64,000 nt of DNA from Candidatus Poriferisocius sp. (lineage in GTDB: Bacteria > Actinomycetota > Acidimicrobiia > Acidimicrobiales > Bin134): positions 823,968 through 887,967 of the forward strand of contig NZ_CBDCAT010000027.1 in assembly GCF_965214065.1 (NCBI RefSeq), in the 5' to 3' direction. The translations under genes and the position numbers were made by a program. The notes below the pieces were generated by a model. That model made no database searches, had not been told where the DNA came from, and saw only the letters and a program-made list of their open reading frames with translations. Of the stretch, positions 32,091 to 49,820 are shown piece by piece. Position 1 is the stretch's first letter. Every line of letters begins with the position of its first letter.

Positions 32091-32977
32091 CACACCCGCT
32101 CCGCGTGGGCTACCCGGATGAGGCCTTGGGGTCGGAAGATGAACAGCAGGGCGATCAGCAAGAACACGAAGCCCTCGGTGAGGCTGGCCACCGAATCGGG
32201 CAGTCGGGATCTCAGCAGGACTTCGGCCAGTCCGAGCACGAAGCCGCCCAGCACTGCGCCTCTGAGGCTTCCCAATCCGCCGATCAGCGCGGCCAGGACC
32301 CCCTTGAGCATCGGGGTGATACCAGCGCTCGGCACCGTGTTGCCAGCCCGCATGAGCCAGAAGACTCCGGCGATGCCGGCCAACAGACCGGAGAGGGCGA
32401 ACGCACCCCGGATCACGGTGTCCGAGCGCACCCCCATGAGCCGGGCGGTGTCGAAGTCGGCGGCCGCGGCCCGCAGGGCTAGGCCGAACATGGTGCGCTG
32501 AATGAGCCACGAAGTACCCAGCAGGGTGACCAGGGTCACCCCGATCACCACCGTGTCGAACACCTCGACGTTCAGAGACCCGATGGGGTAGGTGTTGGTA
32601 ACCCAACCGGGTCGTGAGAACGTCTTGACCGACGCGGAAACGTAGAGCAAGAAGATGGCGAACACCACGAAATGAACGCCGAACGAGGTCAACAGCAGCG
32701 TGAAGTCGGAGCTTCCTCGGACGCGGCTGAACGCCACCCGTTCGATGACCAGCGAGGTCATGATGGCGGTCCCGATTATGGCCGGGGTGACCAGGTACCA
32801 CGACCAGCCCTCGTTGATGGTCCAGAAGGCCACATAGCCCGAGACGGTGATCAGCTCGCCGTGGGCGAAGTTGAGAAGGTGCATGACGCCGAAGATCACA
32901 GCCACGCCCAGGGCCAGCAACGCGTAGATGCTGCCCCGGCCCAGGCCGTCGATGAGGTTCTGGAGCAACTCGGTCAT
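32090..32977 (-). CDS. livH: Branched-chain-amino-acid-type ABC permease (LivH-like)
   Basis: 295 aa, multi-TM, starting MTELLQNLIDGLGRGSIYALLALGVAVIFG, a typical LivH N-terminus. Confidence 0.85.
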   Translation of the reverse strand: MTELLQNLIDGLGRGSIYALLALGVAVIFGVMHLLNFAHGELITVSGYVAFWTINEGWSWYLVTPAIIGTAIMTSLVIERVAFSRVRGSSDFTLLLTSFGVHFVVFAIFLLYVSASVKTFSRPGWVTNTYPIGSLNVEVFDTVVIGVTLVTLLGTSWLIQRTMFGLALRAAAADFDTARLMGVRSDTVIRGAFALSGLLAGIAGVFWLMRAGNTVPSAGITPMLKGVLAALIGGLGSLRGAVLGGFVLGLAEVLLRSRLPDSVASLTEGFVFLLIALLFIFRPQGLIRVAHAERV

Positions 32978-33684
32978 TTGCCGCTGCCTCCCACGAAGGT
33001 GTCGAACAGGTCGGGGCGTTCTCGCAGCTCTGCACCGGTGCCTTCGGCCACCACCTCTCCCGATCTCAGCACGTAGGCCCGGTCGGCCACCTCCAGCATT
33101 CGGGTGGCATTCTGCTCGACGACCAGCAGGGTGCGCCCTTGATTGCGAAGTGTCTCGATCAACTCGAAAACCACGTCCACCAGCACGGGGGCCAGCCCGA
33201 GGGATGGCTCGTCCATCATCAGCAGTCGAGGCTTCGACATAAGGGCCCGGGCGATGGCCAGCTGCTGGGCCTCTCCGCCTGATAGGTAGCCGGCGGACAC
33301 GTTCCGCTTTTCCCGCAGCACCGGGAATCGCTCGCCCATTTCGTCCAGCAGTCTGGCCCGCTCATCGCGAGGCTGGGTGATACCGCCGATTCTCAGGTTT
33401 TCCTCAACGGCGAGGTCGCCGAAGATCCGCCGGTGCTCGGGTACCAAGGCCACCCCTAGGCGCAGGAGCTTTTCCGGCGACTGGCCGGTGATGTCGGCGC
33501 CCTCGAAAGCCACTGTTCCGGCTGCGGGGGAGAGCAGTCCGGCGATCGACCCCAACAGCGTGGTCTTGCCCGCACCGTTGGGCCCGATGAGGCCGACGAC
33601 CTCACCGGACCCTACGTGCAGTTCAGCGTCTCGAAGTGCTGAGATCGCACCGTATCGGGTAGTCAATCTCGAGACTTCGAGCAT
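32974..33684 (-). CDS. livF: Branched-chain-amino-acid-type ABC ATP-binding protein (LivF-like)
   Basis: GPNGAGKTT, LSGGEAQQLAIARA, LMMDEPSLGLAP. Confidence 0.9.
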   Translation of the reverse strand: MLEVSRLTTRYGAISALRDAELHVGSGEVVGLIGPNGAGKTTLLGSIAGLLSPAAGTVAFEGADITGQSPEKLLRLGVALVPEHRRIFGDLAVEENLRIGGITQPRDERARLLDEMGERFPVLREKRNVSAGYLSGGEAQQLAIARALMSKPRLLMMDEPSLGLAPVLVDVVFELIETLRNQGRTLLVVEQNATRMLEVADRAYVLRSGEVVAEGTGAELRERPDLFDTFVGGSGK

Positions 33685-33731
33685 CGCGCTAATCGTATGT
33701 GAGCATCAGGCCCTAGTGGTAGGGCCTGGCC

Positions 33732-34949
33732 TTAACCGATGGTGGCGACCAGGGTGTCCACGCCGTTCACGATCTGGTTGATCGGCACGGCCTTGGGTGG
33801 AATCCCGTTGGTGCCGGCGAAGGTGATCGCGCCGGACAGACCCCGGAAGCCTTGGATCTGGGCCACTGCGGCGCCGATCTCGGCCGGGTCGGTGCAGCCG
33901 CAGTCCAAGATCCCCTGGATGCCCAAGAACATCGAGTCCACGTACAGGGCCATGAAGCCCCGGCTCTCCAGCGCCTCGCCCTTGGCGGCCTCATAGTCGG
34001 CCAGCATCCGGTCGATGCGGTCACCCGGCGAGATGCTGGTATGGGGAGTGTGGGCGATGCCCTCGTTGTTGTCCTCGAACTGGATGCCGGTGGCGTCCAG
34101 AGCGTCGGTGCCCAGGTAGGTGAGGCCGTCGAGACCTTGGCCCTCGAGTTGGCCCCGCAGGGCGGTGACCTGGAAGCCGAGGGCGGCAGAGAACACCACC
34201 TCGTTGTTCTGGGAGATGCCCGCGATCTCGTTGACCTGGGCGGAGAAGTCGGTGTCACCCGCCCACACGTAGGTCTGCACGCTGACCACCTCGCCGCCAA
34301 GTTCCTCGAACTTGGCCATGAAGGCGTCGGGGTTCACACCGGTGTAGGGAATGCCATCGCCCTCGGTGAACACAATGGCCCGGTTGATGCCCTCATTGTA
34401 AGCCCACTGGGCCGCGGCCTCCGACATGCCGTAGTCGTCGAAGGTCACCAGGAACGAGTTGATCGCGGCATCGGCCAGGGTCGGCTCGGTGGAGGCGGCC
34501 ACGAACAGCGGTACCTGGCCCTCGGTGGCCTGGAGGATCGGCAGAGCGAAATCAGCGAACGGCGGGCCAATCAGGAAGTGGGCGCCCCAATCCAGGAGCT
34601 CCTGGGTGGCCAGCACGGCGTCGTCTCCGACCTCGGCCACACGGACCTCGACCGGCGAGCCGTAGATGCCGCCGGTGCAGTTGACCTTCTCGGCGATGAA
34701 AGGCACCAGCTTGGAGCCGGGGATGTCCACGAACCCGACAACGTCGCTGAAGTCCATGGCCATACCCACCCGGATGGGATCGCCGGTGGGTGCGTCGGCG
34801 CAGTCGTCCAAGTCGGCGGCCAGGATTCCGTCGATGTCCACCGCGGCACCATCAGGCGCTGAGGTTGCCCCGCCGTCATCGTCGTTGCCGCAGGCGGCGA
34901 CTACCAGGGCAAAAATCGCCAAGAGTGCCAACAAGATCTTGAGTTTCAT
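33732..34949 (-). CDS. Liv-type (type I periplasmic binding fold) substrate-binding lipoprotein
   Basis: MKLKILLALLAIFALVVAAC|GNDDDG lipoprotein signal. 405 aa. First gene of the SBP-F-H-MG operon. Confidence 0.85.
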   Translation of the reverse strand: MKLKILLALLAIFALVVAACGNDDDGGATSAPDGAAVDIDGILAADLDDCADAPTGDPIRVGMAMDFSDVVGFVDIPGSKLVPFIAEKVNCTGGIYGSPVEVRVAEVGDDAVLATQELLDWGAHFLIGPPFADFALPILQATEGQVPLFVAASTEPTLADAAINSFLVTFDDYGMSEAAAQWAYNEGINRAIVFTEGDGIPYTGVNPDAFMAKFEELGGEVVSVQTYVWAGDTDFSAQVNEIAGISQNNEVVFSAALGFQVTALRGQLEGQGLDGLTYLGTDALDATGIQFEDNNEGIAHTPHTSISPGDRIDRMLADYEAAKGEALESRGFMALYVDSMFLGIQGILDCGCTDPAEIGAAVAQIQGFRGLSGAITFAGTNGIPPKAVPINQIVNGVDTLVATIG

Positions 34950-35081: not shown

Positions 35082-36122
35082 TCAGGCGGGACGGAGTTCC
35101 GCCGCCAACTCACCGCCTGCTACCACCGGGTTTCCGTCCAGAGTCACCGTGCAACCCCGCATGGGCAGATCGAAGTGACCTCGGCAATACCGCCCTGCCA
35201 CCTCGTTGGCGCCGGTCGAGTACAAGAAGTTGCCGGCGAAAGCCCGCAGCTCAGTGCCGTTGTGATCGGCCTTGTCCCATAGGGCCATGGCCTCCCACCG
35301 GGCCGAGGTGTTCATCCCCCAGCCCACGTGGCTCACTGCGTAGGCGTTGGGCTCCTCGAATGCGGCCAGATAGGACCGGAACAGCTCGGCGTCAACCCCG
35401 TCTCCCGCGATGTCGGTGATGTAGTCGTCCACCACGGTCAGCGCCACTGGCTCGCGGATGTACTCCTTGAAGGTGAGGTTCACGTCGCCAGGGGCCAGCA
35501 CCACCGTTCCGTTCACCGTGGCCGCGGCGGGGAACGCCAACACCAGACCGCCGGGCCAGTGGGCGATCGTCCCCGGCTCAGCGCACCAACCGTGCGACCC
35601 GGCCCGCACCGCGCCGAAGAGATCGATGGTCAGATCGGTACCGGCGCCAGAGGCCACCGTCATCATCTTGGCCTGCTCCAACATGGCGACCCCGGTTGCC
35701 ACCCGATCGGCCAGTGAGGGGTCGTGGGGCCACCGCTCGGTGTTCTCGGGATGCTCGTTGGAGACCATAAGCACTCGGGCCCCGCTGGCCAGGATCTGTC
35801 CGAGCTCTGGGGCATGCAGCAGCCCCTCCACCGTGCAGTCCACGATGAAGTCGGCATTGGTCAGCGCACCCAGCGCCACCGCGTTGGCGGCCAGCGCCAC
35901 CGATGCCCCGGTGGAGCGGATAGGAAGCGGCCCCGCATTGGGCGGGGTGGTGACCACCACATCGACGGGAGCAACCCCGCAAAGCGATAGGGCCGAACGA
36001 GCGGTCTGCACAATCTCGGAGCGGCTCCGGGTCTCTGACAGCACCACCGCGGTCTCGGTGGAAACCAGCCTGCAGGCCTCGAATTGCTCGGCGTATCGCC
36101 TGACCCAGGAGCTCTCAATCAT
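35082..36122 (-). CDS. 2,5-dihydroxypyridine 5,6-dioxygenase (NicX)-like, aminopeptidase-T (M29) fold Fe(II) dioxygenase family
   Basis: The C-terminal VSHVGWGMNTSARWEAMALWD...RAFAGNFLYSTGANEVAGRYCRGHFDLPMRGC closely parallels, from memory, P. putida NicX ISHIGWGL...FYGNFLFSTGPN...CHLDIPLRNC. The His/Ser/His/Asp iron ligands appear conserved. Confidence 0.65.
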   Translation of the reverse strand: MIESSWVRRYAEQFEACRLVSTETAVVLSETRSRSEIVQTARSALSLCGVAPVDVVVTTPPNAGPLPIRSTGASVALAANAVALGALTNADFIVDCTVEGLLHAPELGQILASGARVLMVSNEHPENTERWPHDPSLADRVATGVAMLEQAKMMTVASGAGTDLTIDLFGAVRAGSHGWCAEPGTIAHWPGGLVLAFPAAATVNGTVVLAPGDVNLTFKEYIREPVALTVVDDYITDIAGDGVDAELFRSYLAAFEEPNAYAVSHVGWGMNTSARWEAMALWDKADHNGTELRAFAGNFLYSTGANEVAGRYCRGHFDLPMRGCTVTLDGNPVVAGGELAAELRPA

Positions 36123-36139
36123 GGATCAACCCTCATCGC

Positions 36140-37351
36140 TCACACCGGGGTCTCTTCTGCGTCGTCGAAGAGCCCCGCCCGGCCGAGGCGGTCGAGGCAC
36201 ACATCCACGCTCCAGGGATGCATGGCCGCGCCGCACCGGGCGTCACGGTAGTGCTGCTCCAGCCGCGACGGTCGCAGCAGGGCGCGCCCGCCGCACACCC
36301 GCAGCGCAAGCGAAGCCAAATCAGGGGCGCCGTCCATGGTGGTGACCATCGAACTCCACGCCCTTCGCACCGCGGCGGGCTCGGGATCGACTCCGCACTC
36401 GCCCAGCACCCGATAGCACAGCGCCTGGGCGCGGTCGTAGATGAGGTTCATTTCCGCCCAGCCCTGCTGCTTGATGGAGTGGGAGCGCCGGGCCGCAGGT
36501 CCGCCGTCGCCGATGAGGTACTCGGCGGTGGCGTCTATGACGGCCCTCATCAGCCCCAGATAGGCGAACGACAAGGTCATGAAGAAGTACGGCCATCGGG
36601 CAGCGGCTTGGTCGAACATCCCCGGCGGGATCCACTCGTGCTCTTGCGGGACGAACACGTTTTCCAACAACAGGTTGCGGGAGTCGGTGGCCCGCATGCC
36701 CAGCGGATCCCAGTCGCCCTCGATGTGGAGGCCTTTTGAGTCGGCGGCCACGCCCAAAAGGCGCACCCGGGGGTCGCCTTCAACCACGCACACGACGTTG
36801 TGGATGTCGGCGGCTCCGCTGAGCGAGGCGAAGATTTTCCGCCCGCTGACCCGGTAGCCGCCCTCGACCGCCACCGCGGTGGTGGCATAGCCCTCGGTGG
36901 CCCCGGCCGCTATCCCCTCCGAAAACGGCTGGCTGTGGATGTGCCCCTGCTCCACGATGCCCTTCCATAGCGACGCTCTTCTGCGGTGCAGCACCGATCG
37001 CTCCTCTGAGCTCAACTCCATGTCGTCGGCGATCTGGCCCACCATGAGTGTGGTGGCCGAGTGCATGTTGAAGGTCAATGCGGTGGCCGCACAGTGCCGG
37101 GCGAGCTCTTCAGACGCCAGGGCGTAGCCCACGAAGTCGGCGCCTAGCCCGCCGGCCGATTCCGGTATGCAGACACCCAGCAAGCCGGCATCGGAGAGGT
37201 CGTGCCAGTTCTCAAAGGGGAAGGCCGCGTCCCGGTCGTACTTGGCCGCTCGAGCCGCCAGCTCAGGGCCGATGGCTCGAACCCGCTCCACGATGGCTGA
37301 CCGCTCAGGGGTCAGCAGCCCGCCGCCTGCCGCGAGGTCGACAAGAGTCAC
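36140..37351 (-). CDS. Acyl-CoA dehydrogenase family flavoprotein
   Basis: 403 aa with a GTG start. Three-domain ACAD-like pattern: GLGADFVGYALASEELARHC, middle beta domain GYRVSGRKIFASL, and C-terminal YRDARCGAAMHPWS. Confidence 0.8.
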   Translation of the reverse strand: MTLVDLAAGGGLLTPERSAIVERVRAIGPELAARAAKYDRDAAFPFENWHDLSDAGLLGVCIPESAGGLGADFVGYALASEELARHCAATALTFNMHSATTLMVGQIADDMELSSEERSVLHRRRASLWKGIVEQGHIHSQPFSEGIAAGATEGYATTAVAVEGGYRVSGRKIFASLSGAADIHNVVCVVEGDPRVRLLGVAADSKGLHIEGDWDPLGMRATDSRNLLLENVFVPQEHEWIPPGMFDQAAARWPYFFMTLSFAYLGLMRAVIDATAEYLIGDGGPAARRSHSIKQQGWAEMNLIYDRAQALCYRVLGECGVDPEPAAVRRAWSSMVTTMDGAPDLASLALRVCGGRALLRPSRLEQHYRDARCGAAMHPWSVDVCLDRLGRAGLFDDAEETPV

Positions 37352-37462
37352 CGGGTTGCTTTGTGTTCGCAGGGCACAGTCACTGTCTCGACTCTATTGT
37401 TGATAACCCCGGCCGCGACAGTCCGGTTGAATCGTTTGGTACCGAATGATTATACTGCCGCC

Positions 37463-38278
37463 GTGGCCGACCTCAAGGGGTTCATGTATCCCCGCTCACC
37501 CTCCGGTGCCGCTGGCATCCTGCCCGGTCCGCCGTGGCACTACTCGGGCGAGATGCTAACAGTGGAGTTCCGCACCGATCCGGCCAACGTGGCCGAGCTG
37601 CTCCCCGAGCCGCTGAAGCCAGTTGATGACGACCCCGGTGCCGTCGCCCTTATCTGGGCCGACTGGCAGAGTTGCAGCGACAGCTTCGAGGAGATCCTCG
37701 ACCCGGCTCGGGCCCAGTACAAAGAAGTGTTCTTGGTGGTGCGCTGCTCCTATCAGGGCCAGGTCTTCAGCCGGGCGGCCTACATCTGGGTGGACAAGGA
37801 CTTTGCCATGGCCCGGGGCCACATCCAGGGCTACCCCAAGAAGATGAGCGAGATCTGGATGACCCGGCCGGTGGCCTACGGCAAAGCCGGTCCCCGGCTC
37901 GAGCCCGGCGGGCAGTTCGGCGCCACCCTCAGCACCTGGGGGCGGCGGATCGCCGAGGCCCGGTTCACCATCCAGGGCACCGCCGAGGCGCCCGGATTCG
38001 TCAACGGCCACCCCATGCTGCACAGCCGCCAGATGCCGTCTATCGAGATGGACGGGCGCGACTCGCTGGACGAGCTGGTGACCATGCGGGGCTACGACGC
38101 CGACTTGGGCCCGGTGTTCAGCGGCGATGCCGAGCTAGTGCTGCCCGAGAGCCCCACCGAGGAGCTCACCCGCCTGGCGCCCTTCGAGGTCATCGGCGGC
38201 TATTACCGGCAAGTGGGCAACTCCATGGCCGGGGGCACCACGCTGTGGGCCGCCCCCAACCCGATGGAATCCGATTGA
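37463..38278 (+). CDS. Acetoacetate decarboxylase (ADC) family protein
   Basis: GTG start giving VADLKGFMYPRSPSGAAGILPGPPWHYSGE, the characteristic ADC-family N-terminus. The stop overlaps the P450 ATG (TGATG). Confidence 0.7.
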   Translation: MADLKGFMYPRSPSGAAGILPGPPWHYSGEMLTVEFRTDPANVAELLPEPLKPVDDDPGAVALIWADWQSCSDSFEEILDPARAQYKEVFLVVRCSYQGQVFSRAAYIWVDKDFAMARGHIQGYPKKMSEIWMTRPVAYGKAGPRLEPGGQFGATLSTWGRRIAEARFTIQGTAEAPGFVNGHPMLHSRQMPSIEMDGRDSLDELVTMRGYDADLGPVFSGDAELVLPESPTEELTRLAPFEVIGGYYRQVGNSMAGGTTLWAAPNPMESD

Positions 38279-39549
38279 TGGGCGCCCAGACCTATGTCGA
38301 TAGCTACTTGGCCGACCTCGGCCCCGATGACGCTGACATAACAGACCACGACACCTATGTGGCCGGCGTGCCCCACGCCACCTTCACTCGGCTGCGGGCC
38401 GAAGATCCGGTGCATTGGACCGAGGAGGCCGATGGTGCCGGGTTCTGGTCGATCCTGCGCTACGACGACTGCCTGGCAGTGAGCCGCGACGTTGAGACGT
38501 TCACCTCGTCGCTGGGCATCCGCTTGGAGGAGATGGACGCTGAGCAGACTGAGGCCCGGCGCACCATGATGGAGATGGACCCGCCCGAGCACACCCGTTA
38601 TCGGCGCTTGGTGAACAAGGGCTTCACCCGCCGCACGGTGGAGACCTTCGAATCCTCAATCCGGGAGCTGGTGGGCGAGGTGCTTGACAAGGCGCTGGCC
38701 AACGACGAGTTCGACTTCGTTCACGACATCGCCGAGGAGCTTCCCATGAGGATGCTCGGCCGCCTGCTGGGCACCGACGACGAGGACGGCCGCAAGCTGG
38801 TGGCCTGGGGCGACGCTCTGCTGGGCAACACCGACCCCGACTTCACCGATTTTCCGGTTGACCTCACCGACACCGAGCAGTTTCGGATGGTTCCTTTCCG
38901 TAGCCCCGCCGCCATCGAGATCTTCCGCTACGCCCAAGAGCAGGCCGCCGACCGGCGGGGTTGCCCCCGTGACGACATCATCACCAAACTGCTGGCCCCC
39001 GCCATCGACGGCGAGCCGCTGACCGACTTGGAGTTCAACAACTTTTTCACCCTGCTGGTGGCCGCCGGCAACGACACCACCCGCTACACCATGACCCACG
39101 GTATGTGGACCATGCTGAACCACCCTTGCCTGTGGGAGTCGTGGCAAGCCGACCCCGGCTTGACCGACACGGCGGTGGAGGAGATCTTGCGAACCGGGTC
39201 GGTCACCATGCACTTCCGACGAACCGCCACCCGCGACGTCGAACTGCGGGGGTCGCATGTTCGTGCCGGCGACAAGGTGGTTGTCTGGTTCGTGGCCGCC
39301 AACCACGATCCTGGGGGGTTCGAGCGGCCGTTCCGCTTAGATCTTGGGCGTGAGCCCAACGACCACATGGCGTTCGGCCGCAACGGACCCCACTTTTGCC
39401 TGGGGGCCTGGCTGGCCCGTATGGAGGTGCGGCTGGTGTTCGAAGAGCTTCTGAAGCGGGTGAGCCGCTTGGAGCCCGCTGGCGCCATCGACCGGCTGCG
39501 GTCCAATTTCATCTCGGGAATCAAGCGACTTCCGGTCAAGGTGGTGTGA
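38278..39549 (+). CDS. Cytochrome P450
   Basis: FGRNGPHFCLGAWLARME heme loop, I-helix VAAGNDTTRY, EILR. The 625-aa track ORF upstream part overlaps the ADC gene out of frame. Confidence 0.9.
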   Translation: MGAQTYVDSYLADLGPDDADITDHDTYVAGVPHATFTRLRAEDPVHWTEEADGAGFWSILRYDDCLAVSRDVETFTSSLGIRLEEMDAEQTEARRTMMEMDPPEHTRYRRLVNKGFTRRTVETFESSIRELVGEVLDKALANDEFDFVHDIAEELPMRMLGRLLGTDDEDGRKLVAWGDALLGNTDPDFTDFPVDLTDTEQFRMVPFRSPAAIEIFRYAQEQAADRRGCPRDDIITKLLAPAIDGEPLTDLEFNNFFTLLVAAGNDTTRYTMTHGMWTMLNHPCLWESWQADPGLTDTAVEEILRTGSVTMHFRRTATRDVELRGSHVRAGDKVVVWFVAANHDPGGFERPFRLDLGREPNDHMAFGRNGPHFCLGAWLARMEVRLVFEELLKRVSRLEPAGAIDRLRSNFISGIKRLPVKVV

Positions 39550-39598
39550 TGCAAGATCCAATTGCTGGAATCCGGCTCCCCTCGATCCAGGGGGCAGC

Positions 39599-40462
39599 GT
39601 GATGGGCGCCATTGTCGGCGCCGGGCTGGTCTCCCACGTTCCGCCGCTGGTGATGCCCGAGGCGATTCGCCGCCTGCTCAACAACGGCGAGGACACCACG
39701 CTCTACCAGGGTCTCCACGACTTGGGCGCTGAGCGGCTGGGCCCTCTGAGCGCCGACACCGTGGTGGTGGTGGACACCCACTGGTTCACCACCGTCGAGC
39801 ACATAGTGACTTCCGCCGACCGCCGGTGCGGACTGTTCACGTCCGAAGAGCTGCCCCGGGGCATGAGCCAGATGCCCTATGACATGCCTGGCGACCGGGA
39901 GCTGGCCGAGGCGTGGGCCTCCCAGGCCGCCGGTCGGGACGACACCTGGGTAACCGCCATCGACGACCCCCATATGCCGGTCCACTATCCCACCATCAAC
40001 CTGCTGGGGTTCTTGCAAGGTGACGAGGCGTGGATTTCGGCCGGCATCTGCCAGACCGCCGAACCGGAAGACTTCCTCTTGTTCGGCGAGCTGCTGGCTC
40101 AGGCGGTGGCGAGCCTGGACCGCCGGGTGGTGGTGTTGGCCAGCGGCGGGCTGAGCCACCGGTTCTGGCCGCTGCGCCAGTTCCGCGACCACGAAGGAGC
40201 CGATCCCGCTCTGCATCTTCGCACTCCTGAGGCGCGCGCCGCCGACGAGCACGTCATCGACTGCCTCACCAGGGGTGACCATGCCGGGGTGCTCGACTTC
40301 TTGCCCGAGTTCTCCACCCACGCCCCCGAGGGGTTCTTCGGCCATTACCTGACCATGGTCGGCGCTCTGGGCGGGGCGGACTGCACGACCCCTGGCGAGC
40401 AGTTCGGCCAATATGAGGCGGTCGCCGGGACAGGACAGATCCATCTATGGTTCAGCCCGTGA
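39599..40462 (+). CDS. hpaD: Class III (LigB-superfamily) extradiol dioxygenase, homoprotocatechuate 2,3-dioxygenase (HpaD/HpcB)-like
   Basis: VSHVPPL, VVVVDTHWF, FTSEELPRGM..PYDMPGDRELA, VVVLASGGLSHRF, EGFFGHYLTMVGALGG, GTGQIHLWF. From memory, these parallel E. coli HpcB segment by segment. Confidence 0.7.
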   Translation: MMGAIVGAGLVSHVPPLVMPEAIRRLLNNGEDTTLYQGLHDLGAERLGPLSADTVVVVDTHWFTTVEHIVTSADRRCGLFTSEELPRGMSQMPYDMPGDRELAEAWASQAAGRDDTWVTAIDDPHMPVHYPTINLLGFLQGDEAWISAGICQTAEPEDFLLFGELLAQAVASLDRRVVVLASGGLSHRFWPLRQFRDHEGADPALHLRTPEARAADEHVIDCLTRGDHAGVLDFLPEFSTHAPEGFFGHYLTMVGALGGADCTTPGEQFGQYEAVAGTGQIHLWFSP

Positions 40463-41166
40463 AGCGCGCTCTGGCCATCGCCCACGAGGTGGACGGTCTG
40501 CCCGGCCAGATTGCCACCCGTTTGCGCCAGCGGGGCTATGAAGTCCACATCCACGTTGTTACCCACGACTACGACCACCCCAACGTCGCCGTGCCGTTTC
40601 CGCCCATGGACGACTACGACCTGCTGTTGCCCATGGGCTCGGTGCGCTCGCTCACCGACAAGGCCGAGATCGATACTTGGATCTATGAAGAGCTCGACAT
40701 GATCAGACAGGCCCATGAGGCGGGCAAGCCCGTGTTGGGAATCTGCTTCGGCGGACAGCTGATCTCCGAAGCGCTCGGCGGCACAGTCGAGGTGTCCCCG
40801 GTGACCGAGATCGGCTGGTTCGAGCTCGGCGACGGCGAAGACGGCCCCAACCCGGCCGGGCCGGGGCCGTGGATGCAGTGGCACCACGACCGCTTCACCC
40901 CGCCCCCCGGATCTGAGGTGCTGGCCCGCAACGACAGCTCGGTGCAGCTCATCAGGATCGACCGCACGGTGGGAACCCAGTTCCACCCCGAGGTCGACGT
41001 GGCCCACGTCGAGTCGTTCCTCAGGTTGGCCCCGAAAGACTACTTGGACGAATGCGGGGTGGACTTCGACCAGCTCATGGAGGAGACCCGCCAGCACGAG
41101 ATGGCCAACATCAAGCGGTGCCACGCCTTTGTCGACTGGTACCTCGACGAGGTGCTGGCCGATTAG
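40447..41166 (+). CDS. Class I glutamine amidotransferase-like protein
   Basis: VLGICFGGQLI (nucleophile Cys) and GTQFHPE (His-Glu). It overlaps the dioxygenase gene by 16 nt. Confidence 0.8.
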   Translation: MVQPVKRALAIAHEVDGLPGQIATRLRQRGYEVHIHVVTHDYDHPNVAVPFPPMDDYDLLLPMGSVRSLTDKAEIDTWIYEELDMIRQAHEAGKPVLGICFGGQLISEALGGTVEVSPVTEIGWFELGDGEDGPNPAGPGPWMQWHHDRFTPPPGSEVLARNDSSVQLIRIDRTVGTQFHPEVDVAHVESFLRLAPKDYLDECGVDFDQLMEETRQHEMANIKRCHAFVDWYLDEVLAD

Positions 41167-41187
41167 CGCACCCCTCAGCCGGGTTTC

Positions 41188-42501
41188 TCAGTGGTACATG
41201 AGGTATTCGTCGAGCTCCCACTGGGTTACCTCGCCTCCGGGCACGTCCCCGCCAACCGCGGCGATATAGCGGTCCCACTCGGCCTGCTTGTTGGCGATGA
41301 AGTTCTGGCAAAGGTCGTCGCCCACTGCGGCCATCAACGCGGGATCGGCCTGAAGATGCTCTAGTGCGGCGGCAAGGCTGGGCGCCGCGCCGACATCGGT
41401 GTTGACCTCTTCGAATCCGTCGGTGGTCAGCGGACCGGGGCATTCCAGCTCATCGACCACGCCGAGCCGGGCCGCTTGAAGGACGGTGGCCACCCCCAAG
41501 TGGATGTTGACCGCGCCGTCGCCAACCCGGTTCTCGATCCGGGTGGCCGCTCCTCTCGCCTCCGGTATGCGATTGGCCGCGCAGCGATGGTCGTGGCCCC
41601 AGTTGGCCCAATAGCCGTTGAGCTCTGCGGGCTGGAGCCGCCGGTAGGCGTTCACCGTGGGGGCGCACAGCGCGGTGAGCCCCTGATGGTGGGCCACCAG
41701 GCCGGCCAGGCACCCCTTGGCCAGGGCAGATAGGCCGTCGTCGGCCGAGGTGTCGTTGAAGGCGTTATGGCCGTCGGCGTCGACCAGAGAGAAGTTCACA
41801 TGTACGCCGCTGCCGGCCACCCCGACAAACGGCTTGCCCAAGAAAGTGATGTCCAGGCCGTGGGCCAGGGCCACCTCTCGGGCCAGCACCCGGAACAAGA
41901 ACGCCTCGTCGGCCGCTTTGAGGGCGTCGTCGTATTCCAGCGTAAGCTCGAACTGGGACTCGTCGTACTCCGCGTTGATGCTCTCCATCCGGAACCCGCA
42001 CCTCCAAGCGGTGCGGGTGATGTCGTCGATCAGCCCGGTGGGATCAGCCGAGCGCCCCGTGCCGTAGACGAACGACCGGGGAGTGTCCCAGCGCTCCCAG
42101 CCGCCCTCGCCGTCGGGCTGGAGCACATAGGCCTCTAGCTCGATGCCCACCTTGGGCGTATACCCAAGCTCGGCCCACGCGGCGATGGCCTGCTGGAGAG
42201 CGAAACGGGTTGAGACGGTGTAGGGCTGGCCCCTGAAGTCCAGATGACCCACGACCACACCGGTAGCGTCGTCCTCCCAGCTGGGGCGAACCTCGTCAGG
42301 ATCGAAGCTGGCCACTACGTCGGGTAGCCCTTCCAGCAGATAGGTACCCGGAGCGGGAATCAGGCTGCGGTCGTAACCGAGGGCGAAGGTGGTGATGCAG
42401 TGCCCTGTGCCCTGCTCGGCCAGGTGGACAGGCAGATACTTGCCCCGGGCCAAGCCGAGATGGTCGGGCCACAGCACGCGAATCCGGTCGTAGTCGCTCA
42501 T
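41188..42501 (-). CDS. Glutamine-synthetase-family gamma-glutamyl ligase (second copy)
   Basis: 437 aa with ELEAYVL, NAEYDESQFELTL, FLGKPFVGVAGSGVHVNFSL, TRIENR. Confidence 0.85.
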   Translation of the reverse strand: MSDYDRIRVLWPDHLGLARGKYLPVHLAEQGTGHCITTFALGYDRSLIPAPGTYLLEGLPDVVASFDPDEVRPSWEDDATGVVVGHLDFRGQPYTVSTRFALQQAIAAWAELGYTPKVGIELEAYVLQPDGEGGWERWDTPRSFVYGTGRSADPTGLIDDITRTAWRCGFRMESINAEYDESQFELTLEYDDALKAADEAFLFRVLAREVALAHGLDITFLGKPFVGVAGSGVHVNFSLVDADGHNAFNDTSADDGLSALAKGCLAGLVAHHQGLTALCAPTVNAYRRLQPAELNGYWANWGHDHRCAANRIPEARGAATRIENRVGDGAVNIHLGVATVLQAARLGVVDELECPGPLTTDGFEEVNTDVGAAPSLAAALEHLQADPALMAAVGDDLCQNFIANKQAEWDRYIAAVGGDVPGGEVTQWELDEYLMYH

Positions 42502-42537
42502 GGAGTTATTCCTCTCATGACGGAGAGATTTGTTGTC

Positions 42538-43371
42538 TTATCTTTGCTGAATCGCTGGCAAGGAACCCAAGAACTCGCCAACAAGCTCATTGAACGCTTC
42601 AGGGGCTTCTGCCGGGCTGAGGTGACCTGCTCCAGGGATGACTTCCAGCCGGCTGTTCTTGATGCCCGCATGGAGCACGTCGGCATAGGCCGGAGGGGTC
42701 TCCTCGTCGAGTTCGCCGACGACCACCAGCGTGGCAGACTCGACCTCAGAGAGCCGGTGGAGCACATTATGAGAGGGGATCAGCTGGCACGAGGCCCGGA
42801 ATCCCGTCTCGGGGATTCGGGCGAACGCGGCGGCGGTGCGGTCGCGCTCGATCCCCTCGAATCCCGGGGCTGCGATGCCGGCGATCACTTCGTCGGCAAT
42901 GTTGGCCAGCGAGAGCCCGGCATCCAGAGGGGCGGTCCGCGATTCGCGCCACTCGTCGGGATCGGTTCCGTCGCCGCCGAATACTGCGCTGGTGTCGGCC
43001 AGCACCAGCGACCGGATCCGGTAGGGGTGGCGCAAGGCGGTGTGCAGCGCATGGTGTCCCCCAAACGACAGCCCGCACAGATGAGCTGACTCCACGCCCA
43101 GCCGATCGAGAAGTTCGGCCACCGCGTCGGCGACGGCCTCGAATGTGAGCGGGGTTACCGGCGATGACTCGCCGTAGCCGGGCATATCCCAGGCCACACA
43201 GCGCCACCGGTCGCTAAGAGCCTCAAGCTGGGGTTCCCACGAAGTGCGCGACCCGGCCAAGCCATGGAGGAACAGCACAACATCGCCATTGCCTGCTTCA
43301 CGCCATGCGATGGCACCATCGACATCTCGCACCCGGACAGCCACCACAGACCAAACTAACGTTCTCGGCAA
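42538..43371 (-). CDS. Alpha/beta-fold hydrolase
   Basis: VVLFLHGLAGS and GLSFGG nucleophile elbow (GxSxG), with a C-terminal IPGAGHLSP His. The start is uncertain (TTG 43371, or GTG 43347/43344). Confidence 0.8.
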   Translation of the reverse strand: MPRTLVWSVVAVRVRDVDGAIAWREAGNGDVVLFLHGLAGSRTSWEPQLEALSDRWRCVAWDMPGYGESSPVTPLTFEAVADAVAELLDRLGVESAHLCGLSFGGHHALHTALRHPYRIRSLVLADTSAVFGGDGTDPDEWRESRTAPLDAGLSLANIADEVIAGIAAPGFEGIERDRTAAAFARIPETGFRASCQLIPSHNVLHRLSEVESATLVVVGELDEETPPAYADVLHAGIKNSRLEVIPGAGHLSPAEAPEAFNELVGEFLGSLPAIQQR

Positions 43372-43395
43372 GAGCGAATAGAAGCGAACAGTTCT

Positions 43396-44103
43396 ATGGC
43401 CACGAAACCCCCCCTGATCGGATTGCCCGGCCGGCGCAAGCGCGGCTCAGAGGTACGCGGCTTGCTGAAGGTGCTAGATGACTGCGACCTCGACCTGTAC
43501 TTCGCCGATTACGCCCGCGGCGTCATCGAGGCGGGCGGGATTCCGGTGCACATTCCCATCGACGTTGATCCGGCTGCTGTCGGCGAGCGGCTCGACGGGC
43601 TGGTGTTGCCCGGGGGAACCGACATCGACCCGATTCGATACGGGGCCGATCCCGATCCTGAATTGCTGGCTCCTGAATTGGAACGCGATGACTTGGAGTT
43701 GGGGCTGCTGTCAGCTGCGTTGGATGCCGACATCCCGGTGCTCGGCATCTGTCGGGGTATCCAGGTACTCAACGTCCACCAGGGGGGCACACTGCACCAG
43801 CACGTCCCGGAACACAACCGCCTCGACATTTCCATCCATTCCGCTACTCACCGGGTGAACTTCGCCGAGGACTCCACCCTTTATGAGCTTTATGGCCCGT
43901 CAGCCCAGGTCAACAGCCTCCACCATCAAGCGGTGGCCAACGTGGGTCGCGATCTCACCGTCACCGCCCAGACCGACGACGGCACCATCGAGGGTTTGGA
44001 GATGGGCGACTCAGTAGTGACCGTGCAATGGCACCCGGAGATGATGCCCACCCGCCCCACGGATCCGATCTTCCGCTGGCTGGTGGATCGAGCGTCTTGC
44101 TAG
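43396..44103 (+). CDS. Gamma-glutamyl-gamma-aminobutyrate hydrolase (PuuD)-like peptidase C26
   Basis: VLGICRGIQVLNV (Cys nucleophile), VQWHPE, LPGGTDIDP. Confidence 0.85.
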   Translation: MATKPPLIGLPGRRKRGSEVRGLLKVLDDCDLDLYFADYARGVIEAGGIPVHIPIDVDPAAVGERLDGLVLPGGTDIDPIRYGADPDPELLAPELERDDLELGLLSAALDADIPVLGICRGIQVLNVHQGGTLHQHVPEHNRLDISIHSATHRVNFAEDSTLYELYGPSAQVNSLHHQAVANVGRDLTVTAQTDDGTIEGLEMGDSVVTVQWHPEMMPTRPTDPIFRWLVDRASC

Positions 44104-44170
44104 TCCTGCTTGCGGCCGTGGAGAAAGTACATGGGCGTGAAGATGCCGAGTTCGCCCGCCTCGCCCACCA

Positions 44171-45754
44171 CTAAGGCAGAGCGGCATGAAGGATCCGCTC
44201 GTAGTCGGCTTCTTCGGTCGGCAAGGTCTCGACCAACCGCCCTCGGCTCATAACGTGGATCACGTCGGCCACTGCGAGCAGCTCCTCGAACTCTGACGAT
44301 GCCACAACAACGCCGAATCCGTGTTCCTGCACCAACCGGCGAATGAGAGCAAGGATCTCTGCCTTGGCCGCGACATCGATCCCTTGAGTTGGCTCGTCGA
44401 GCAAGAGGACGTCAGGTTTCGAAACCAGAGCTCGCGCCAGGGCAAGTTTTTGCTGATTGCCTCCACTGAGGTTACCGGCAAGTATCTCTGTGTTGGATGG
44501 GCGGATTCCGAACGCTTCGACGTGCTCACTGGCCAATTGCCGTTCTTTTCTGATTCGGCGCATTCCACCGCGGCTCGCCCCGGAGTGGATGGGAAGCGTG
44601 AGATTGGCTCGAACTGACAGCTGCGAGACGATGGCCGACGCGCGGCGGTCAGCCGGAACGAGGACGACCCCAGCACGGTATGCGCCTCTGATCATGCCAG
44701 GGTGGAGGGCATGACCGCGTACGGCGATAAGACCGCGGTCGTACCCGTCTACACCGGCAATCGCGCGCAGAAGGTGGCCGTGTCCTGATCCTTGAACTCC
44801 GGCCACACCAACGATTTGCCCTGAGTGCAAACGAAGCGAGACGTCGGCGAGATTGGGCTCTCGCGTCAGTCCGTCAACTTCAAGCAGAGGCCTTCCATTG
44901 GTCGCTTCCACCGAAGAGGAGCGGAAGGTGCCCGAAGGAGGACCATTTTGATCAGTGAGCCTGCTGGTCTTGGTCATGAGGGCGACGATCTTGTCCTTGT
45001 CGAGTTCTGCCCGGGGGAACGTGCCCACTGCACAGCCATCGCGCAGAACGGTGATCCGGTCGGCGATGCCGAGAACTTCGGTCAGCCGGTGGCTGACAAA
45101 GATGATCGCCTTCTGCTGGTCGCGCAGTAGCCGTAGCCTGTCTAGCATCGCCGCTGCATCGTTCTCGGACAGGGCTGCGTTGGGTTCGTCGAGGACGATG
45201 ACGTCGCCGGGATGCAAGAGTGTCCTAGAGATCTGCGCGAGCCGAAGCTCCGGGATGCTCAGCTGGCCTGACAGCGCCGATTCGCTGAAAGCAGCGCCGC
45301 AACGGTCCAATGCATCCCTGGTTTGCTCCCGCTCCTTGGAGGAGAGCTTCCCTTTTCGGTCAAATGGCCCTTCGAAGCCCAAGAGCATGTTGCGCCCGAT
45401 ACTGAAATCTGGCACCGCCTGCACTTCTTGGGGGACGTGGCTGATTCCACGTCGCTGGGCGTCTCGGGGACCGTGGAATACCACATCTGAATCGTCCAGC
45501 AAGATACGACCGGAGTCGGGAGGGATCAGCCCAGCCAGGATCTTCACCAAGGTCGACTTGCCCGCACCGTTCTCGCCTAGGAGTGCATGAACTTCGCCTC
45601 GCCGCACGTCGAAGCTGACGTCGTCGAGTGCCTTCACTCCTGGAAATGACTTGGTTATCCCGTCTAAGCGCGCCGCGGGAACATCGCCGGGCAGTTCCAC
45701 CCCGCAGGACGTTGCGCTCAGGTCAGGCTCAGATTCGGAGTCAGGCGGTGTCAT
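44171..45754 (-). CDS. Sugar (ribose/Mgl-type) ABC transporter ATP-binding protein with duplicated nucleotide-binding domains
   Basis: GENGAGKST in NBD1 and LSGGNQQKLALARA / LLLDEPTQGID in NBD2. Start chosen at MTPPDSE (45754), overlapping the permease stop by 14 nt. Confidence 0.9.
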   Translation of the reverse strand: MTPPDSESEPDLSATSCGVELPGDVPAARLDGITKSFPGVKALDDVSFDVRRGEVHALLGENGAGKSTLVKILAGLIPPDSGRILLDDSDVVFHGPRDAQRRGISHVPQEVQAVPDFSIGRNMLLGFEGPFDRKGKLSSKEREQTRDALDRCGAAFSESALSGQLSIPELRLAQISRTLLHPGDVIVLDEPNAALSENDAAAMLDRLRLLRDQQKAIIFVSHRLTEVLGIADRITVLRDGCAVGTFPRAELDKDKIVALMTKTSRLTDQNGPPSGTFRSSSVEATNGRPLLEVDGLTREPNLADVSLRLHSGQIVGVAGVQGSGHGHLLRAIAGVDGYDRGLIAVRGHALHPGMIRGAYRAGVVLVPADRRASAIVSQLSVRANLTLPIHSGASRGGMRRIRKERQLASEHVEAFGIRPSNTEILAGNLSGGNQQKLALARALVSKPDVLLLDEPTQGIDVAAKAEILALIRRLVQEHGFGVVVASSEFEELLAVADVIHVMSRGRLVETLPTEEADYERILHAALP

Positions 45755-46856
45755 CGCTCGACGTGTCTGTCTTTGAGGCCGGGCCGGCAAGCCTCCAGGA
45801 TTGTCCATCGAATCCGATGAAGAGTCGCTTCAGCGTCGGCAGGAGATCAGAGAATTGGCGGAAGCTTCCTCCCCTTATCTGGCTGATCAACACTGCGACC
45901 ACGAGGGCGATGCCGATCGCCATCTGCTGCTGGAAGGTACCGACACCAGTCACAGCAAGCCCCACAGTCAGGCATGTCATCAGAGCTACCCCGAGAAAGA
46001 CCCCGCTTAATCGGCCTTTGCCCCCGCCGATGACTGCACCCCCAATAACCGCTGCGGCAATTGATCGCAATTCGAAACCGGCACCGAGCCCGGTCTGGCC
46101 AACCGATACTCGGGCGGTGAGCATGATCCCGCCTGCACCGGCGAGCATGCCGGTGATCATGTAGGTAATGGTCTCGTAGCGGGCTACGGGAATCCCGGCC
46201 AGCCGACATGTCTCGCGGCTGCCGCCAATGGCGTACACATAAAGGCCGATACGCGTTCTTCCGGTGAACGCAACTGCCAACAGCAGGATGATGATGCCGA
46301 TTCCGATCGTCGATGGCATGAAACCCCAGTCGCGGCCACCGAACCACTTGAGGGTGGGATCGTTCGCGATAACTGAGGCTCCGTTGCTTCGCACGCCGCC
46401 GTAACCGGTCAAAAAGGTCAGCATCGCCATGGTCACGACGAACGGACTCACACGCAGCTTGGCGATCAGGATCCCGTTGACGAGCCCAATAGCGGCACCG
46501 GTGAGAAGCCCGATGACTATGGCCGCCGCCACCCCGTGGTCTGCCATCGCTTGGGCAGTGACGATGCTGGTGAAACCCATGTTCGCCCCAACAGAGAGGT
46601 CGAACCCGCCGACGGTTATGGCGAACATCTGGCCGATTGCCACCACGAGGAGCACGCCCGCCTGGCGCGATATGTTCTGAACGTTGGCTGTAGTTGGGTA
46701 GATTGACGGCTCGAGGAGCGAGAAAATGGCGATCATCGCGGCGAGCCCAGCCAGAAGCTGGAGTTCGGTTGAATACTTGAAAGCCCAGTCTCGGATGGAG
46801 AGCCTGTGACTCCTGGCCGTAAACGAGGTGTGAGCAGCCAACGATTCTTCGGTCAC
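45741..46856 (-). CDS. Sugar ABC transporter permease (RbsC-like)
   Basis: 371 aa, about 9-10 TM, glycine-rich helices typical of the RbsC/AraH family. Confidence 0.85.
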   Translation of the reverse strand: MTEESLAAHTSFTARSHRLSIRDWAFKYSTELQLLAGLAAMIAIFSLLEPSIYPTTANVQNISRQAGVLLVVAIGQMFAITVGGFDLSVGANMGFTSIVTAQAMADHGVAAAIVIGLLTGAAIGLVNGILIAKLRVSPFVVTMAMLTFLTGYGGVRSNGASVIANDPTLKWFGGRDWGFMPSTIGIGIIILLLAVAFTGRTRIGLYVYAIGGSRETCRLAGIPVARYETITYMITGMLAGAGGIMLTARVSVGQTGLGAGFELRSIAAAVIGGAVIGGGKGRLSGVFLGVALMTCLTVGLAVTGVGTFQQQMAIGIALVVAVLISQIRGGSFRQFSDLLPTLKRLFIGFDGQSWRLAGPASKTDTSSDDTA

Positions 46857-46946
46857 AGAAGCCCCCTCAAGAGCATAGTTCTATTCCACTACCGCTCTCC
46901 GGCCTGCTAGAAGGCAGCCGCGAGGCCGCCTCCTAACTGATTGGCA

Positions 46947-47858: not shown

Positions 47859-47892
47859 CTATTTCTCCTTGCTAGGCGTTGATACAGGGAAC

Positions 47893-49071: not shown

Positions 49072-49132
49072 ATCGGTTCCTACCTTCCGGTCAGAGCGCA
49101 CCGCCCCTGATGAGCGGTCCAACTGAGATCGA

Positions 49133-49147
49133 ATATTATAGCATAAT
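49133..49147. promoter_or_regulatory. AT-rich palindromic operator candidate, copy A (ATATTATAGCATAAT)
   Basis: 62-76 nt upstream of the SBP start. It is followed by a tandem ATAATCCA-GG-ATAATCCA. The same 15-mer occurs at 49755. Confidence 0.5.
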
Positions 49148-49221
49148 CCAGGATAATCCAGCCCGTGGGCCTCGTCAACCGTCGAGTCTGGGTGCCAGTG
49201 GGGGACTCGCGCTGCTTGAAC

Positions 49222-49689: not shown

Positions 49690-49754
49690 GGGGGCACCTC
49701 CTTGGGATCCCATGGGCGGCCCGTCAAGACCCCTGAGAGTCCTTTGCGATGTAG

Positions 49755-49771: not shown

Positions 49772-49820
49772 AGGAATACCGATAATCCCGTAGTAGTCCA
49801 TCCGTGAATGGAGACTCCTG

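Follow-up and report, generated by a model that had tools for sequence, protein, structure and literature searches.

A putative gamma-glutamyl-amine and ring-cleavage gene island in Candidatus Poriferisocius, and its relatives in Acidimicrobiia and other phyla

To our knowledge, amine catabolism by way of gamma-glutamylation has so far been described for aliphatic amines and, with Rieske dioxygenases, for anilines. The Ipu pathway for isopropylamine in Pseudomonas sp. KIE171 and the Pip pathway for piperidine and pyrrolidine in Pseudomonas sp. KU43P employ a ligase resembling glutamine synthetase (GS), a cytochrome P450 with a ferredoxin, and a GATase-like hydrolase. The Puu pathway for putrescine in E. 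coli, and the GlnA2/3/4 systems of Streptomyces and Mycobacterium, combine a GS-like ligase with an aldehyde dehydrogenase (ALDH) and a PuuD-type C26 hydrolase. In the aniline and 1-naphthylamine systems (tdnQ/tdnT, atdA1-A5, npaA1), an aromatic amine is glutamylated, reversibly by means of a GATase-like hydrolase, and a Rieske dioxygenase then releases a nitrogen-free catechol. Here we analyze a 64,000-nucleotide stretch (the window) of the genome of Candidatus Poriferisocius sp., a sponge-associated member of Acidimicrobiia, in which an initial annotation had described a gamma-glutamyl-type catabolic cluster of nine genes at 35082-44103 with a P450 in place of a Rieske dioxygenase. All nine genes were found at or near the positions first assigned to them, each family assignment held in Pfam, PDB and NCBIfam searches, and all nine open reading frames showed a strong third-position GC bias. 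The families assigned to genes at 21.8-44.1 kb included no Rieske protein, in agreement with that description; the related loci discussed below received no Rieske-specific scan. Functions are predictions from sequence and gene order throughout, and scores against curated families were judged by NCBIfam and domain-model equivalog cutoffs.

We propose, giving the idea about an even chance of being correct, that the locus serves to break down an aromatic amine that is kept N-gamma-glutamylated while its ring is destroyed. The nine genes form the right-hand half of this proposed catabolic island of about 22 kb (approximately 21.8-44.1 kb). The predicted system would work like a fusion of three designs, with an Ipu/Pip front end, a meta-cleavage middle of the Hpa type and a Puu tail. 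A search of the literature for the cluster, its enzyme combination and gamma-glutamyl-tyramine/dopamine catabolism found no description of this cluster, consistent with the earlier remark that the combination was not recognizable as a described pathway, and gamma-glutamyltyramine was encountered mainly in papers on methanofuran/methylofuran biosynthesis and in metabolomics lists.

The middle of the proposed pathway is encoded largely by a plus-strand operon, which opens with an enzyme of the acetoacetate decarboxylase (ADC) fold (37463-38278; Pfam ADC, 5.8e-54; likely start the GTG at 37463, rather than 37361). Its best NCBIfam match was the MppR model, at 216 bits, compared with 29 bits for the true acetoacetate decarboxylase model, and alignments to MppR, Sbi00515 and Swit_4259 (E values of 1e-53 to 1e-25) placed it nearest to the first two. 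The Schiff-base lysine aligns with K156 of MppR and K122 of Sbi00515, and a glutamate aligns with E84. The catalytic lysine and glutamate of these ADC-superfamily non-decarboxylases are thus kept, while overall identity to the window protein is moderate. Sbi00515 catalyzes pyruvate-aldehyde aldol-dehydration, and we know of no aromatic meta-cleavage pathway in which MppR, Sbi00515 or Swit_4259 has been placed; for the window protein, we propose a role as a hydratase-aldolase releasing pyruvate.

The second gene of the operon, P450 number 2 (38278-39549, plus strand), begins with an ATG at 38278 that overlaps the ADC stop codon (38276-38278) as TGATG, and the coupling noted in the initial annotation was therefore seen again. 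Its translation carries the motifs FGxGxHxCxG and AGNDTT. The best PDB match was an ancestral reconstruction of CYP125 (1.9e-122, 412 bits), followed by CYP125 and CYP124 structures at about 1e-75 (approximately 257 bits for Mycobacterium tuberculosis CYP125 and 256 bits for CYP124); these scores support a place in the CYP125/124/126 clan, but neither membership in the CYP125 family nor a substrate. Next is a LigB-type (class III) extradiol dioxygenase resembling HpaD (39602-40462, plus strand, refined start ATG 39602; Pfam LigB, 5e-23). Its 123 bits against the HpaD_Fe model fall below the cutoff of 316, and hence below equivalog level. Residues H13, H61, H187 and E244, which make up the His/His/Glu ligand set and a catalytic histidine, align with those of HpaD (3,4-dihydroxyphenylacetate 2,3-dioxygenase, 8IQ8) and were invariant among 15 homologues; the metal ligands, on whose presence the initial annotation had made its case depend, are retained on alignment both here and in the NicX-like protein described below. 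The LigB protein also matches beta subunits of 2-aminophenol 1,6-dioxygenase (2.6e-11), carries a DODA-type label in UniRef, and is 83-91% identical to Candidatus Poriferisocius proteins and about 75% identical to proteins from many metagenome-assembled genomes (MAGs) of marine Acidimicrobiales. The operon ends with a stand-alone class I GATase-like amide hydrolase (40447-41166, plus strand; Pfam GATase), with the motifs GICFGGQ and HPE and a PDB match to 7D54, a stand-alone glutaminase of M. smegmatis (1.4e-40). As first reported, this gene overlaps LigB by 16 nt; the overlap is identical in two related loci (L001 and L002), and the GATase is translationally coupled to LigB.

Three further proteins are encoded at the far left of the island: an HpaE-like ALDH (21807-23195, minus strand), a single-domain FAH-family enzyme resembling HpaG (23263-24147, minus strand, start refined from sequence) that could be an isomerase, decarboxylase or hydratase, and a MarR-family regulator resembling HpaR (24173-24679, plus strand). 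The ALDH matched HpaE best (494 bits, cutoff 638), the regulator HpaR (48 bits, under cutoff), and the FAH protein the C-terminal domain of HpaG (196 bits, cutoff 276), with a higher score of 220 of 444 bits to the generic FAH-family model PRK12764. About 12.8 kb, reaching from a second aldehyde dehydrogenase gene through the ACAD-fold gene, part these genes from the ADC gene, and no convincing operator motif was shared between the FAH-MarR and ACAD-ADC intergenic regions. The HpaG- and HpaE-like genes at 21.8-24.1 kb had been called related pieces; they proved to be core members, which lie directly beside the ADC gene in distant relatives.

Like the hpa/hpc pathways of E. coli and Pseudomonas, the locus has HpaD-, HpaE-, HpaG- and HpaR-like best matches and a dioxygenase with its ligands kept. 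Unlike them, it is tied to gamma-glutamyl enzymes, with a P450 replacing HpaBC, an ADC-fold enzyme in place of HpaH/HpaI and a one-domain FAH protein instead of the two-domain HpaG. The best curated matches of the set (HpaD, HpaE, HpaR, and the C-terminal domain of HpaG for the FAH protein) all score under their cutoffs, which suggests a 4-substituted catechol other than homoprotocatechuate and a paralogous pathway for a related substrate. By gene content the cluster would not belong among hpa operons, because the scores are sub-threshold and the gene families assigned at 21.8-44.1 kb comprise neither HpaBC, HpaF, HpaH nor HpaI; nor would it belong to the tdn/atd systems, because no Rieske protein is among these families, or to the nic clusters treated below.

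The front end and tail depend on the genes that flank the operon on its right. A GS-like ligase (number 2; 41188-42501, minus strand), proposed as a gamma-glutamyl-amine synthetase, has Gln-synt_C (1.5e-74) as the sole domain detected and scores under the cutoffs of GlnA, type III GS and gamma-glutamylputrescine synthetase; given its gene context, a housekeeping GS role is unlikely. It forms a pair with an alpha/beta-fold hydrolase, and the pair converges on the operon, making GS-like number 2 and the operon of P450 number 2 convergent neighbors in the window. Diverging from this pair is a Peptidase C26 protein (43396-44103, plus strand; Peptidase_C26, 1.6e-55), a PuuD-like gamma-glutamyl hydrolase whose best NCBIfam match was gamma-glutamyl-GABA hydrolase (81 bits; GABA, gamma-aminobutyric acid) and whose translation carries GICRG and HPE. 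Two genes for class I GATase/C26 hydrolases with Cys-His-Glu triad motifs thus lie near GS-like number 2. The remaining tail candidate is the second aldehyde dehydrogenase (ALDH2; 24681-26144, minus strand), an amino-aldehyde/PuuC-like protein with best models for BADH, aminobutyraldehyde dehydrogenase and PuuC-type enzymes. A 93% identical orthologue adjoins the ADC operon in L001/L009, a sister Poriferisocius genome, where it and a GABA-transaminase-like gene (TIGR00700, 476 bits, cutoff 507) are divergent neighbors of that operon. Next to ALDH2 is the gene for a small ferredoxin of 74 amino acids (26144-26368, minus strand; Pfam Fer4_15, Fer4_19, Fer4_13), likely a P450 redox partner.

To assess conservation, we scanned one genome per species for relatives of the LigB protein; 338 genomes matched, and the best 80 of the 338, all Acidimicrobiia, were analyzed by calling genes with a codon-log-odds caller and clustering the proteins. 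Counts are given for all 80 loci and for the 51 that have full 10-kb flanks; as the search was anchored on LigB, finding it in all loci (80/80, 51/51) is by construction. The P450 was present in 79 of the 80 loci (50 of the 51 with full flanks), ADC in 73 (48) and the GATase in 63 (45), followed by the C26 hydrolase in 45 (33), GS-like number 2 in 43 (32) and a Liv-type ABC transporter in 35-38 (27-30). The alpha/beta hydrolase was found in 35 loci (25), the ACAD-fold gene in 34 (26) and the NicX-like gene in 21 (16). More distant clades have the recurrent order ALDH< FAH< MarR> ADC> P450> LigB> (GATase>), arrowheads giving orientation; its first part, with the HpaE-like ALDH (family f13 of the clustering), was seen at many loci, and MarR stood directly upstream of ADC in 30 of the 80. 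A second recurrent sub-block joins the alpha/beta hydrolase, ACAD-fold and GS-like genes to a divergent C26 gene. Since the core order recurs in 80 species-level genomes and in other phyla, the arrangement is far beyond chance, and the concern that the neighborhood might be fortuitous was not borne out.

Protein-level searches of plasmid and chromid records revealed replicons that carry orthologues of all three of LigB, ADC and FAH, in Streptomyces lunaelactis, in S. canus NBC_00633, in two strains of Embleya and in Novosphingobium sp. EMRT-2; at the nucleotide level, megablast of the 9-kb region against plasmids gave no match, and an exact-sequence lookup of the GS-like protein gave no record. 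The S. canus plasmid (L088) carries a near-complete set, with a GS-like gene and then a P450, divergent from ferredoxin, FAD-dependent oxidoreductase, ADC, ALDH, LigB and FAH genes. These are followed after FAH by TetR, a second P450 with ferredoxin, an LLM oxidoreductase, an APC permease, an ALDH and a gamma-glutamyl-GABA hydrolase family protein. The Novosphingobium order is ferredoxin, ALDH, FAH; ADC; ALDH, GS, P450; LigB; and MarR. Identities of the clusters in other phyla to the window proteins were 72-77% for FAH, 56-62% for ADC and 50-57% for LigB, and the HpaE-like ALDH was 52-66% identical to the LigB-neighboring ALDH of Streptomyces, Embleya and Novosphingobium. Orthologues of P450 number 2 (45-46% identical) are GS-adjacent and co-oriented in Novosphingobium, S. 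canus and Embleya, and GS number 2 was 35-48% identical across the clusters, with 48% to the Novosphingobium protein (WP_136957708; the S. canus orthologue is WP_331722281). ALDH2 was 46% identical to the ALDH beside the PuuD-like hydrolase in both Streptomyces clusters, C26 was 40-41% identical to that hydrolase, and the window MarR shared 42-45% identity with its counterparts in the clusters of S. lunaelactis and Embleya. Two ALDHs are retained in every cross-phylum cluster. Beside the S. canus cluster (L088, 487-3347) lies an aminomethyltransferase (GcvT-like) gene with purU and folD, and L001 has, upstream, a GCV_T gene together with an OYE/Pyr_redox_2 protein of 716 aa; the GcvT-like/GCV_T neighbors hint at tetrahydrofolate-linked demethylation of N- or O-methylated amines.

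The adjacency and co-orientation of GS and P450 in three clusters suggest that the ligase makes the substrate of the P450, as in Ipu/Pip. The locus shares with those systems the set of ligase, P450/ferredoxin and GATase-like hydrolase; it differs in that their substrates are aliphatic and no ring cleavage follows, whereas here genes for an ADC-fold enzyme and an extradiol dioxygenase share the operon of the P450. In the pathway that we propose, the amine would be taken up by the Liv-type ABC transporter and coupled to glutamate by GS-like number 2 at the expense of ATP. P450 number 2, with ferredoxin, would convert the gamma-glutamyl amide to a catechol, for example gamma-Glu-tyramine to gamma-Glu-dopamine, and the LigB/HpaD-like dioxygenase would open the ring. 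The resulting semialdehyde would be oxidized by the HpaE-like ALDH and the product isomerized or decarboxylated by the HpaG-like FAH enzyme. The ADC-fold enzyme, standing in for HpaH and HpaI, would then use its Schiff-base lysine to hydrate a 2-oxo-3-enoate and perform a retro-aldol cleavage, giving pyruvate and a gamma-glutamyl-amino-aldehyde. ALDH2 would oxidize this aldehyde to a gamma-glutamyl-amino acid, gamma-Glu-GABA in the case of an arylethylamine, and the PuuD-like C26 hydrolase would release glutamate. The LigB-coupled GATase would be a second gamma-glutamyl hydrolase, which may serve as a safety valve like TdnT or act on another intermediate. Acylation of the nitrogen would keep the amine from cyclizing onto ring-fission carbonyls. 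In the aniline and 1-naphthylamine systems, an aromatic amine is also glutamylated; the difference is that nitrogen is predicted here to stay on the carbon skeleton to the end. The likeness to Puu and GlnA2/3/4 lies in the GS-like ligase, ALDH and PuuD-type C26 hydrolase and, for an arylethylamine substrate, in identical predicted late intermediates (gamma-Glu-aminobutanal and gamma-Glu-GABA). The difference is that there is no PuuB-type oxidase here, and the aldehyde would come from aldol cleavage of the ring-fission product.

The substrate is probably an arylethylamine of the tyramine/dopamine type. Hpa chemistry on a catechol bearing CH2CH2NH-gamma-Glu would, by analogy, yield pyruvate and gamma-glutamyl-4-aminobutanal, while hydroxybenzylamine or aminophenol substrates, which are further candidates, would give beta-alanine or glycine conjugates instead. 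Arylethylamines are favored because the predicted products are Puu intermediates suited to a PuuC-like ALDH, a PuuD-like hydrolase and a GABA transaminase. Two related clusters contain genes for group II pyridoxal phosphate-dependent amino-acid decarboxylases: pSLUN1 of S. lunaelactis (L086) has one at 19241-20641, after FAH, with tyrosine decarboxylases as best models, and an Acidimicrobiales locus (L053) has a Pyridoxal_deC gene (2e-65) at 7755-9104, directly after LigB. Of the two kinds of substrate first suggested, tyramine/dopamine-like and aminopyridine-like, the former is thus favored by the Hpa-type best matches, these decarboxylases and the GABA-transaminase-like gene of the sister genome; a hybrid with N-heterocycle breakdown is not supported as the defining feature.

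Several observations weigh against this pathway, which is built on sequence and synteny. Characterized members of the CYP125/124 clan hydroxylate the termini of sterols or branched lipids, not aromatic rings. The ADC-fold enzyme could instead be a decarboxylase, and the families assigned at 21.8-44.1 kb included no isomerase of the HpaF type. The S. lunaelactis cluster lacks a P450, and an HpcH/HpaI aldolase gene lies 7-8 kb from the block in L002-L005. Decarboxylase and GABA-transaminase-like neighbors occur in only a few loci. Among the 51 loci with full flanks, a GS-like gene lies within 10 kb in only 32, an HpaE-like gene in 18 and FAH in 13, partly because insertions push genes past the 10-kb flank, as in the window. 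The pathway also leaves the ACAD-fold, alpha/beta hydrolase and NicX-like proteins without an explained role.

These last three genes are accessory to the core. The NicX-like Fe(II) dioxygenase (35082-36122, minus strand) had no Pfam match and was recognized by its similarity to P. putida NicX (7CN3, E 1.8e-54); counted along that alignment, the iron-site residues H265, S302, H318 and D320 are all kept. Its gene occurred in 21 of the 80 loci, all in the Poriferisocius-like clade except L033, and always beside the ACAD-fold gene; for these reasons it is a lineage-specific add-on. The ACAD-fold flavoprotein (36140-37351, minus strand; Pfam Acyl-CoA_dh_N, _M, _1 and _2) had been labeled an acyl-CoA dehydrogenase. 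The domains are those of that fold, and matches to nitrososynthase, DszC and HsaA were as strong as those to true acyl-CoA dehydrogenases. The position that we take to hold the catalytic glutamate of MCAD-type enzymes (motif RDAx...YEGT) reads RDARCGAAMHPWS, with histidine for glutamate, and because of this substitution the protein may belong to the group D flavin monooxygenases and not to the acyl-CoA dehydrogenases. The nearest solved structures, 5Z8T and 5GJ7, had no linked publication in our literature search and gave no clue to function. The alpha/beta-fold hydrolase (42538-43371, minus strand; Abhydrolase_1 and _6) is PcaD-like (147 bits, cutoff 256). The three together might amount to a small branch of the nic type in the Poriferisocius lineage, for which no connection to the core was found and which is absent from most relatives.

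Such a branch is the subject of the first of the alternatives that we considered: a nic-like graft in the Poriferisocius lineage, in which a compound of the 2,5-dihydroxypyridine type, made by the ACAD-fold monooxygenase, is cut by the NicX-like enzyme, with the hydrolase then serving as a NicD-like deformylase and the GATase or C26 protein as amidase; the heterocycle might also arise from a cyclized, de-glutamylated ring-fission product. The similarity to NicX (2,5-dihydroxypyridine 5,6-dioxygenase of the nic cluster), with its four iron ligands, the constant association with the ACAD-fold gene (in L033 as alpha/beta hydrolase-ACAD-NicX-GS), and an Amdase/maleate-isomerase-family gene at 267-1013 speak for this explanation. 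We nevertheless consider it unlikely, as the NicX-like gene is absent from 59 of the 80 related loci and ACAD-fold and alpha/beta hydrolase genes also occur without it, and as the hydrolase is PcaD-like, with no NicD-type model among its 25 best matches listed. NicC, NicF and NicAB were not found, leaving the generic hydrolase and the distant Amdase-family gene as the only nic-type partners. The latter, offered by the initial annotation as a NicE-like related piece, sits 34 kb from the cluster amid sugar-transport and housekeeping genes, and the proposal that a hybrid with an N-heteroaromatic pathway defines the locus is not supported, since the NicX-like gene is confined to one clade and L033. 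An arylamine pathway like tdn/atd (aniline, aminophenol or aminobenzyl substrates), with the ring nitrogen glutamylated, the P450 in place of the Rieske dioxygenase and the GATase acting as TdnT, would parallel TdnQ/TdnT in its trio of ligase, hydrolase and oxygenase, and would suit the LigB match to 2-aminophenol 1,6-dioxygenase beta subunits (2.6e-11). It is quite improbable in our judgment: no Rieske protein was found at 21.8-44.1 kb, the P450 would need to insert two oxygens, the best matches are consistently of the Hpa set and not of catechol or aminophenol pathways, and the amino-acid decarboxylases and GABA-transaminase-like gene of related clusters point to arylethylamines.

Two independent pathways might also simply be co-located, one an HPC-like meta-cleavage pathway (P450, LigB, ADC, FAH, ALDH) for a nitrogen-free aromatic acid or phenol, and the other an ordinary pathway of the Puu/GlnA type (GS-like, GATase, C26, ALDH) that acts on putrescine, ethanolamine or other aliphatic amines. 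The linkage of GS in 32/51 and C26 in 33/51 within 10 kb leaves room for this, the hydrolases and ligases match putrescine-type models best, and the GATase resembles a mycobacterial enzyme linked to glnA4. The window is also rich in amine genes at 55-64 kb (agmatinase, PotD-like transporter, aminotransferase, aminobutyraldehyde dehydrogenase). Set against this, the GS-like gene adjoins a co-oriented orthologous P450 in three clusters of two phyla, each by LigB, ADC and FAH; the GATase is coupled to LigB by the 16-nt overlap in the window, L001 and L002 and follows LigB in 45/51; and two ALDHs are kept in each cross-phylum cluster. On balance we regard co-location as rather unlikely, with a minor but real share of the probability. 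Least of all do we expect a biosynthetic cluster, in which extradiol cleavage would lead from DOPA or dopamine to a heterocycle of the same kind as betalamic acid or the alkylprolines, with the ADC-fold protein as an MppR-like cyclase. MppR is itself a biosynthetic cyclase and the best NCBIfam match of that protein, the UniRef name of the LigB protein is DODA-type, and F420/LLM oxidoreductases occur in some related loci. The cluster, in contrast, is embedded among genes for uptake, for lower-pathway enzymes of the HpaE and HpaG kinds, for two ALDHs and for regulators of the MarR and GntR families, and contains no nonribosomal peptide synthetase, polyketide synthase or tailoring genes. Its conservation across hundreds of marine MAG species is also more in keeping with nutrient use; biosynthesis is therefore highly improbable. 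A role in sterol or isoprenoid-lipid metabolism, considered because of the CYP125/124-clan P450 and of nearby ACAD, thiolase and RPE65 genes in L002, was dropped, as those neighbors are not conserved while GS, FAH, ALDH and LigB are.

Returning to the gamma-glutamylated aromatic amine, we tentatively extend the proposal, with clearly less than an even chance of being right, to a widespread undescribed route in which biogenic aromatic amines (tyramine, dopamine and relatives) stay masked as gamma-glutamyl amides during ring hydroxylation by a CYP125-clan P450 and extradiol cleavage, after which an ADC-fold aldolase-dehydratase takes the place of the usual hydratase and aldolase. The route would merge into the Puu intermediates gamma-Glu-aminobutanal, gamma-Glu-GABA and GABA. 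Its hosts would be sponge-associated and free-living marine Acidimicrobiia, Streptomyces and sphingomonads. If true, this would add an aromatic, ring-cleaving branch to the gamma-glutamylation strategy of amine catabolism, give the enigmatic MppR/Sbi00515 branch of the ADC superfamily its first physiological role in central catabolism, and assign an unexpected substrate class to a CYP125-clan P450. It would also account for a gene block of hundreds of uncultured marine and sponge-associated Acidimicrobiia species, and bear on how symbionts obtain carbon and nitrogen from tyrosine-derived amines of their hosts or of algae. The hypothesis is directly testable, because orthologous clusters are present in cultured S. 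canus, S. lunaelactis, Embleya and Novosphingobium sp. EMRT-2.

The Liv-type transporter (30198-34949, minus strand; Pfam BPD_transp_2, ABC_tran, Peripla_BP_6) consists of a fused permease-ATPase (30198-32093), a permease (32090-32977), an ATPase (32974-33684) and a binding protein (33732-34949); compared with solved structures, the last resembled only a generic branched-chain amino-acid binder, with no clue to its ligand. To its left lies a first gamma-glutamyl module (24681-30131), in which GS-like ligase number 1 (27620-28963; Gln-synt_C, 3.6e-84), P450 number 1 (26365-27636; Pfam p450), the ferredoxin and ALDH2 are encoded on one strand (minus), with a Zn-dependent alcohol dehydrogenase upstream (29151-30131, minus strand; Pfam ADH_N and ADH_zinc_N). 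The best NCBIfam match of this ligase was gamma-glutamylputrescine synthetase (231 bits, cutoff 650), and P450 number 1 is a paralogue of the operon P450, about 41% identical to it. The ligase, P450, ferredoxin and alcohol dehydrogenase make up a paralogous Ipu-like module, which resembles the Ipu/Pip alkylamine design. The first module was also found near the core in L036, L042, L053, L070 and L080. Between the genes for GS-like number 1 and the alcohol dehydrogenase, at 28987-29154, about 124 bp are enclosed by a 22-bp inverted repeat free of mismatches, CTAGTGGTGTGTCTTGGGTTTA and its complement. These are its only two copies in the window, with 0 expected by chance, and they fall within the stretch that parts MarR from the ADC gene; the repeat could be an element like a miniature inverted-repeat transposable element, or a large hairpin.

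Elsewhere in the window, a third P450 at 2245-3444 lies well away from the cluster, surrounded by sugar-transport and housekeeping genes unrelated to it. The agmatine/putrescine set at 55270-63692 comprises an agmatinase, an omega-aminotransferase (PRK06541) and an aminobutyraldehyde dehydrogenase (PRK13473), all above their cutoffs, together with the PotD-like ABC transporter and an AsnC regulator. Between this set and the cluster, the region at 44000-54000 has a GC content of 0.59-0.61, compared with about 0.65 elsewhere, and holds genes for a sugar-type ABC transporter and a polysaccharide deacetylase, a second gene of the FAH family (50662-51450), and genes for a glyoxalase-fold protein and a GntR regulator. 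As the cluster adjoins this stretch in only a few relatives, the stretch may have been acquired recently.

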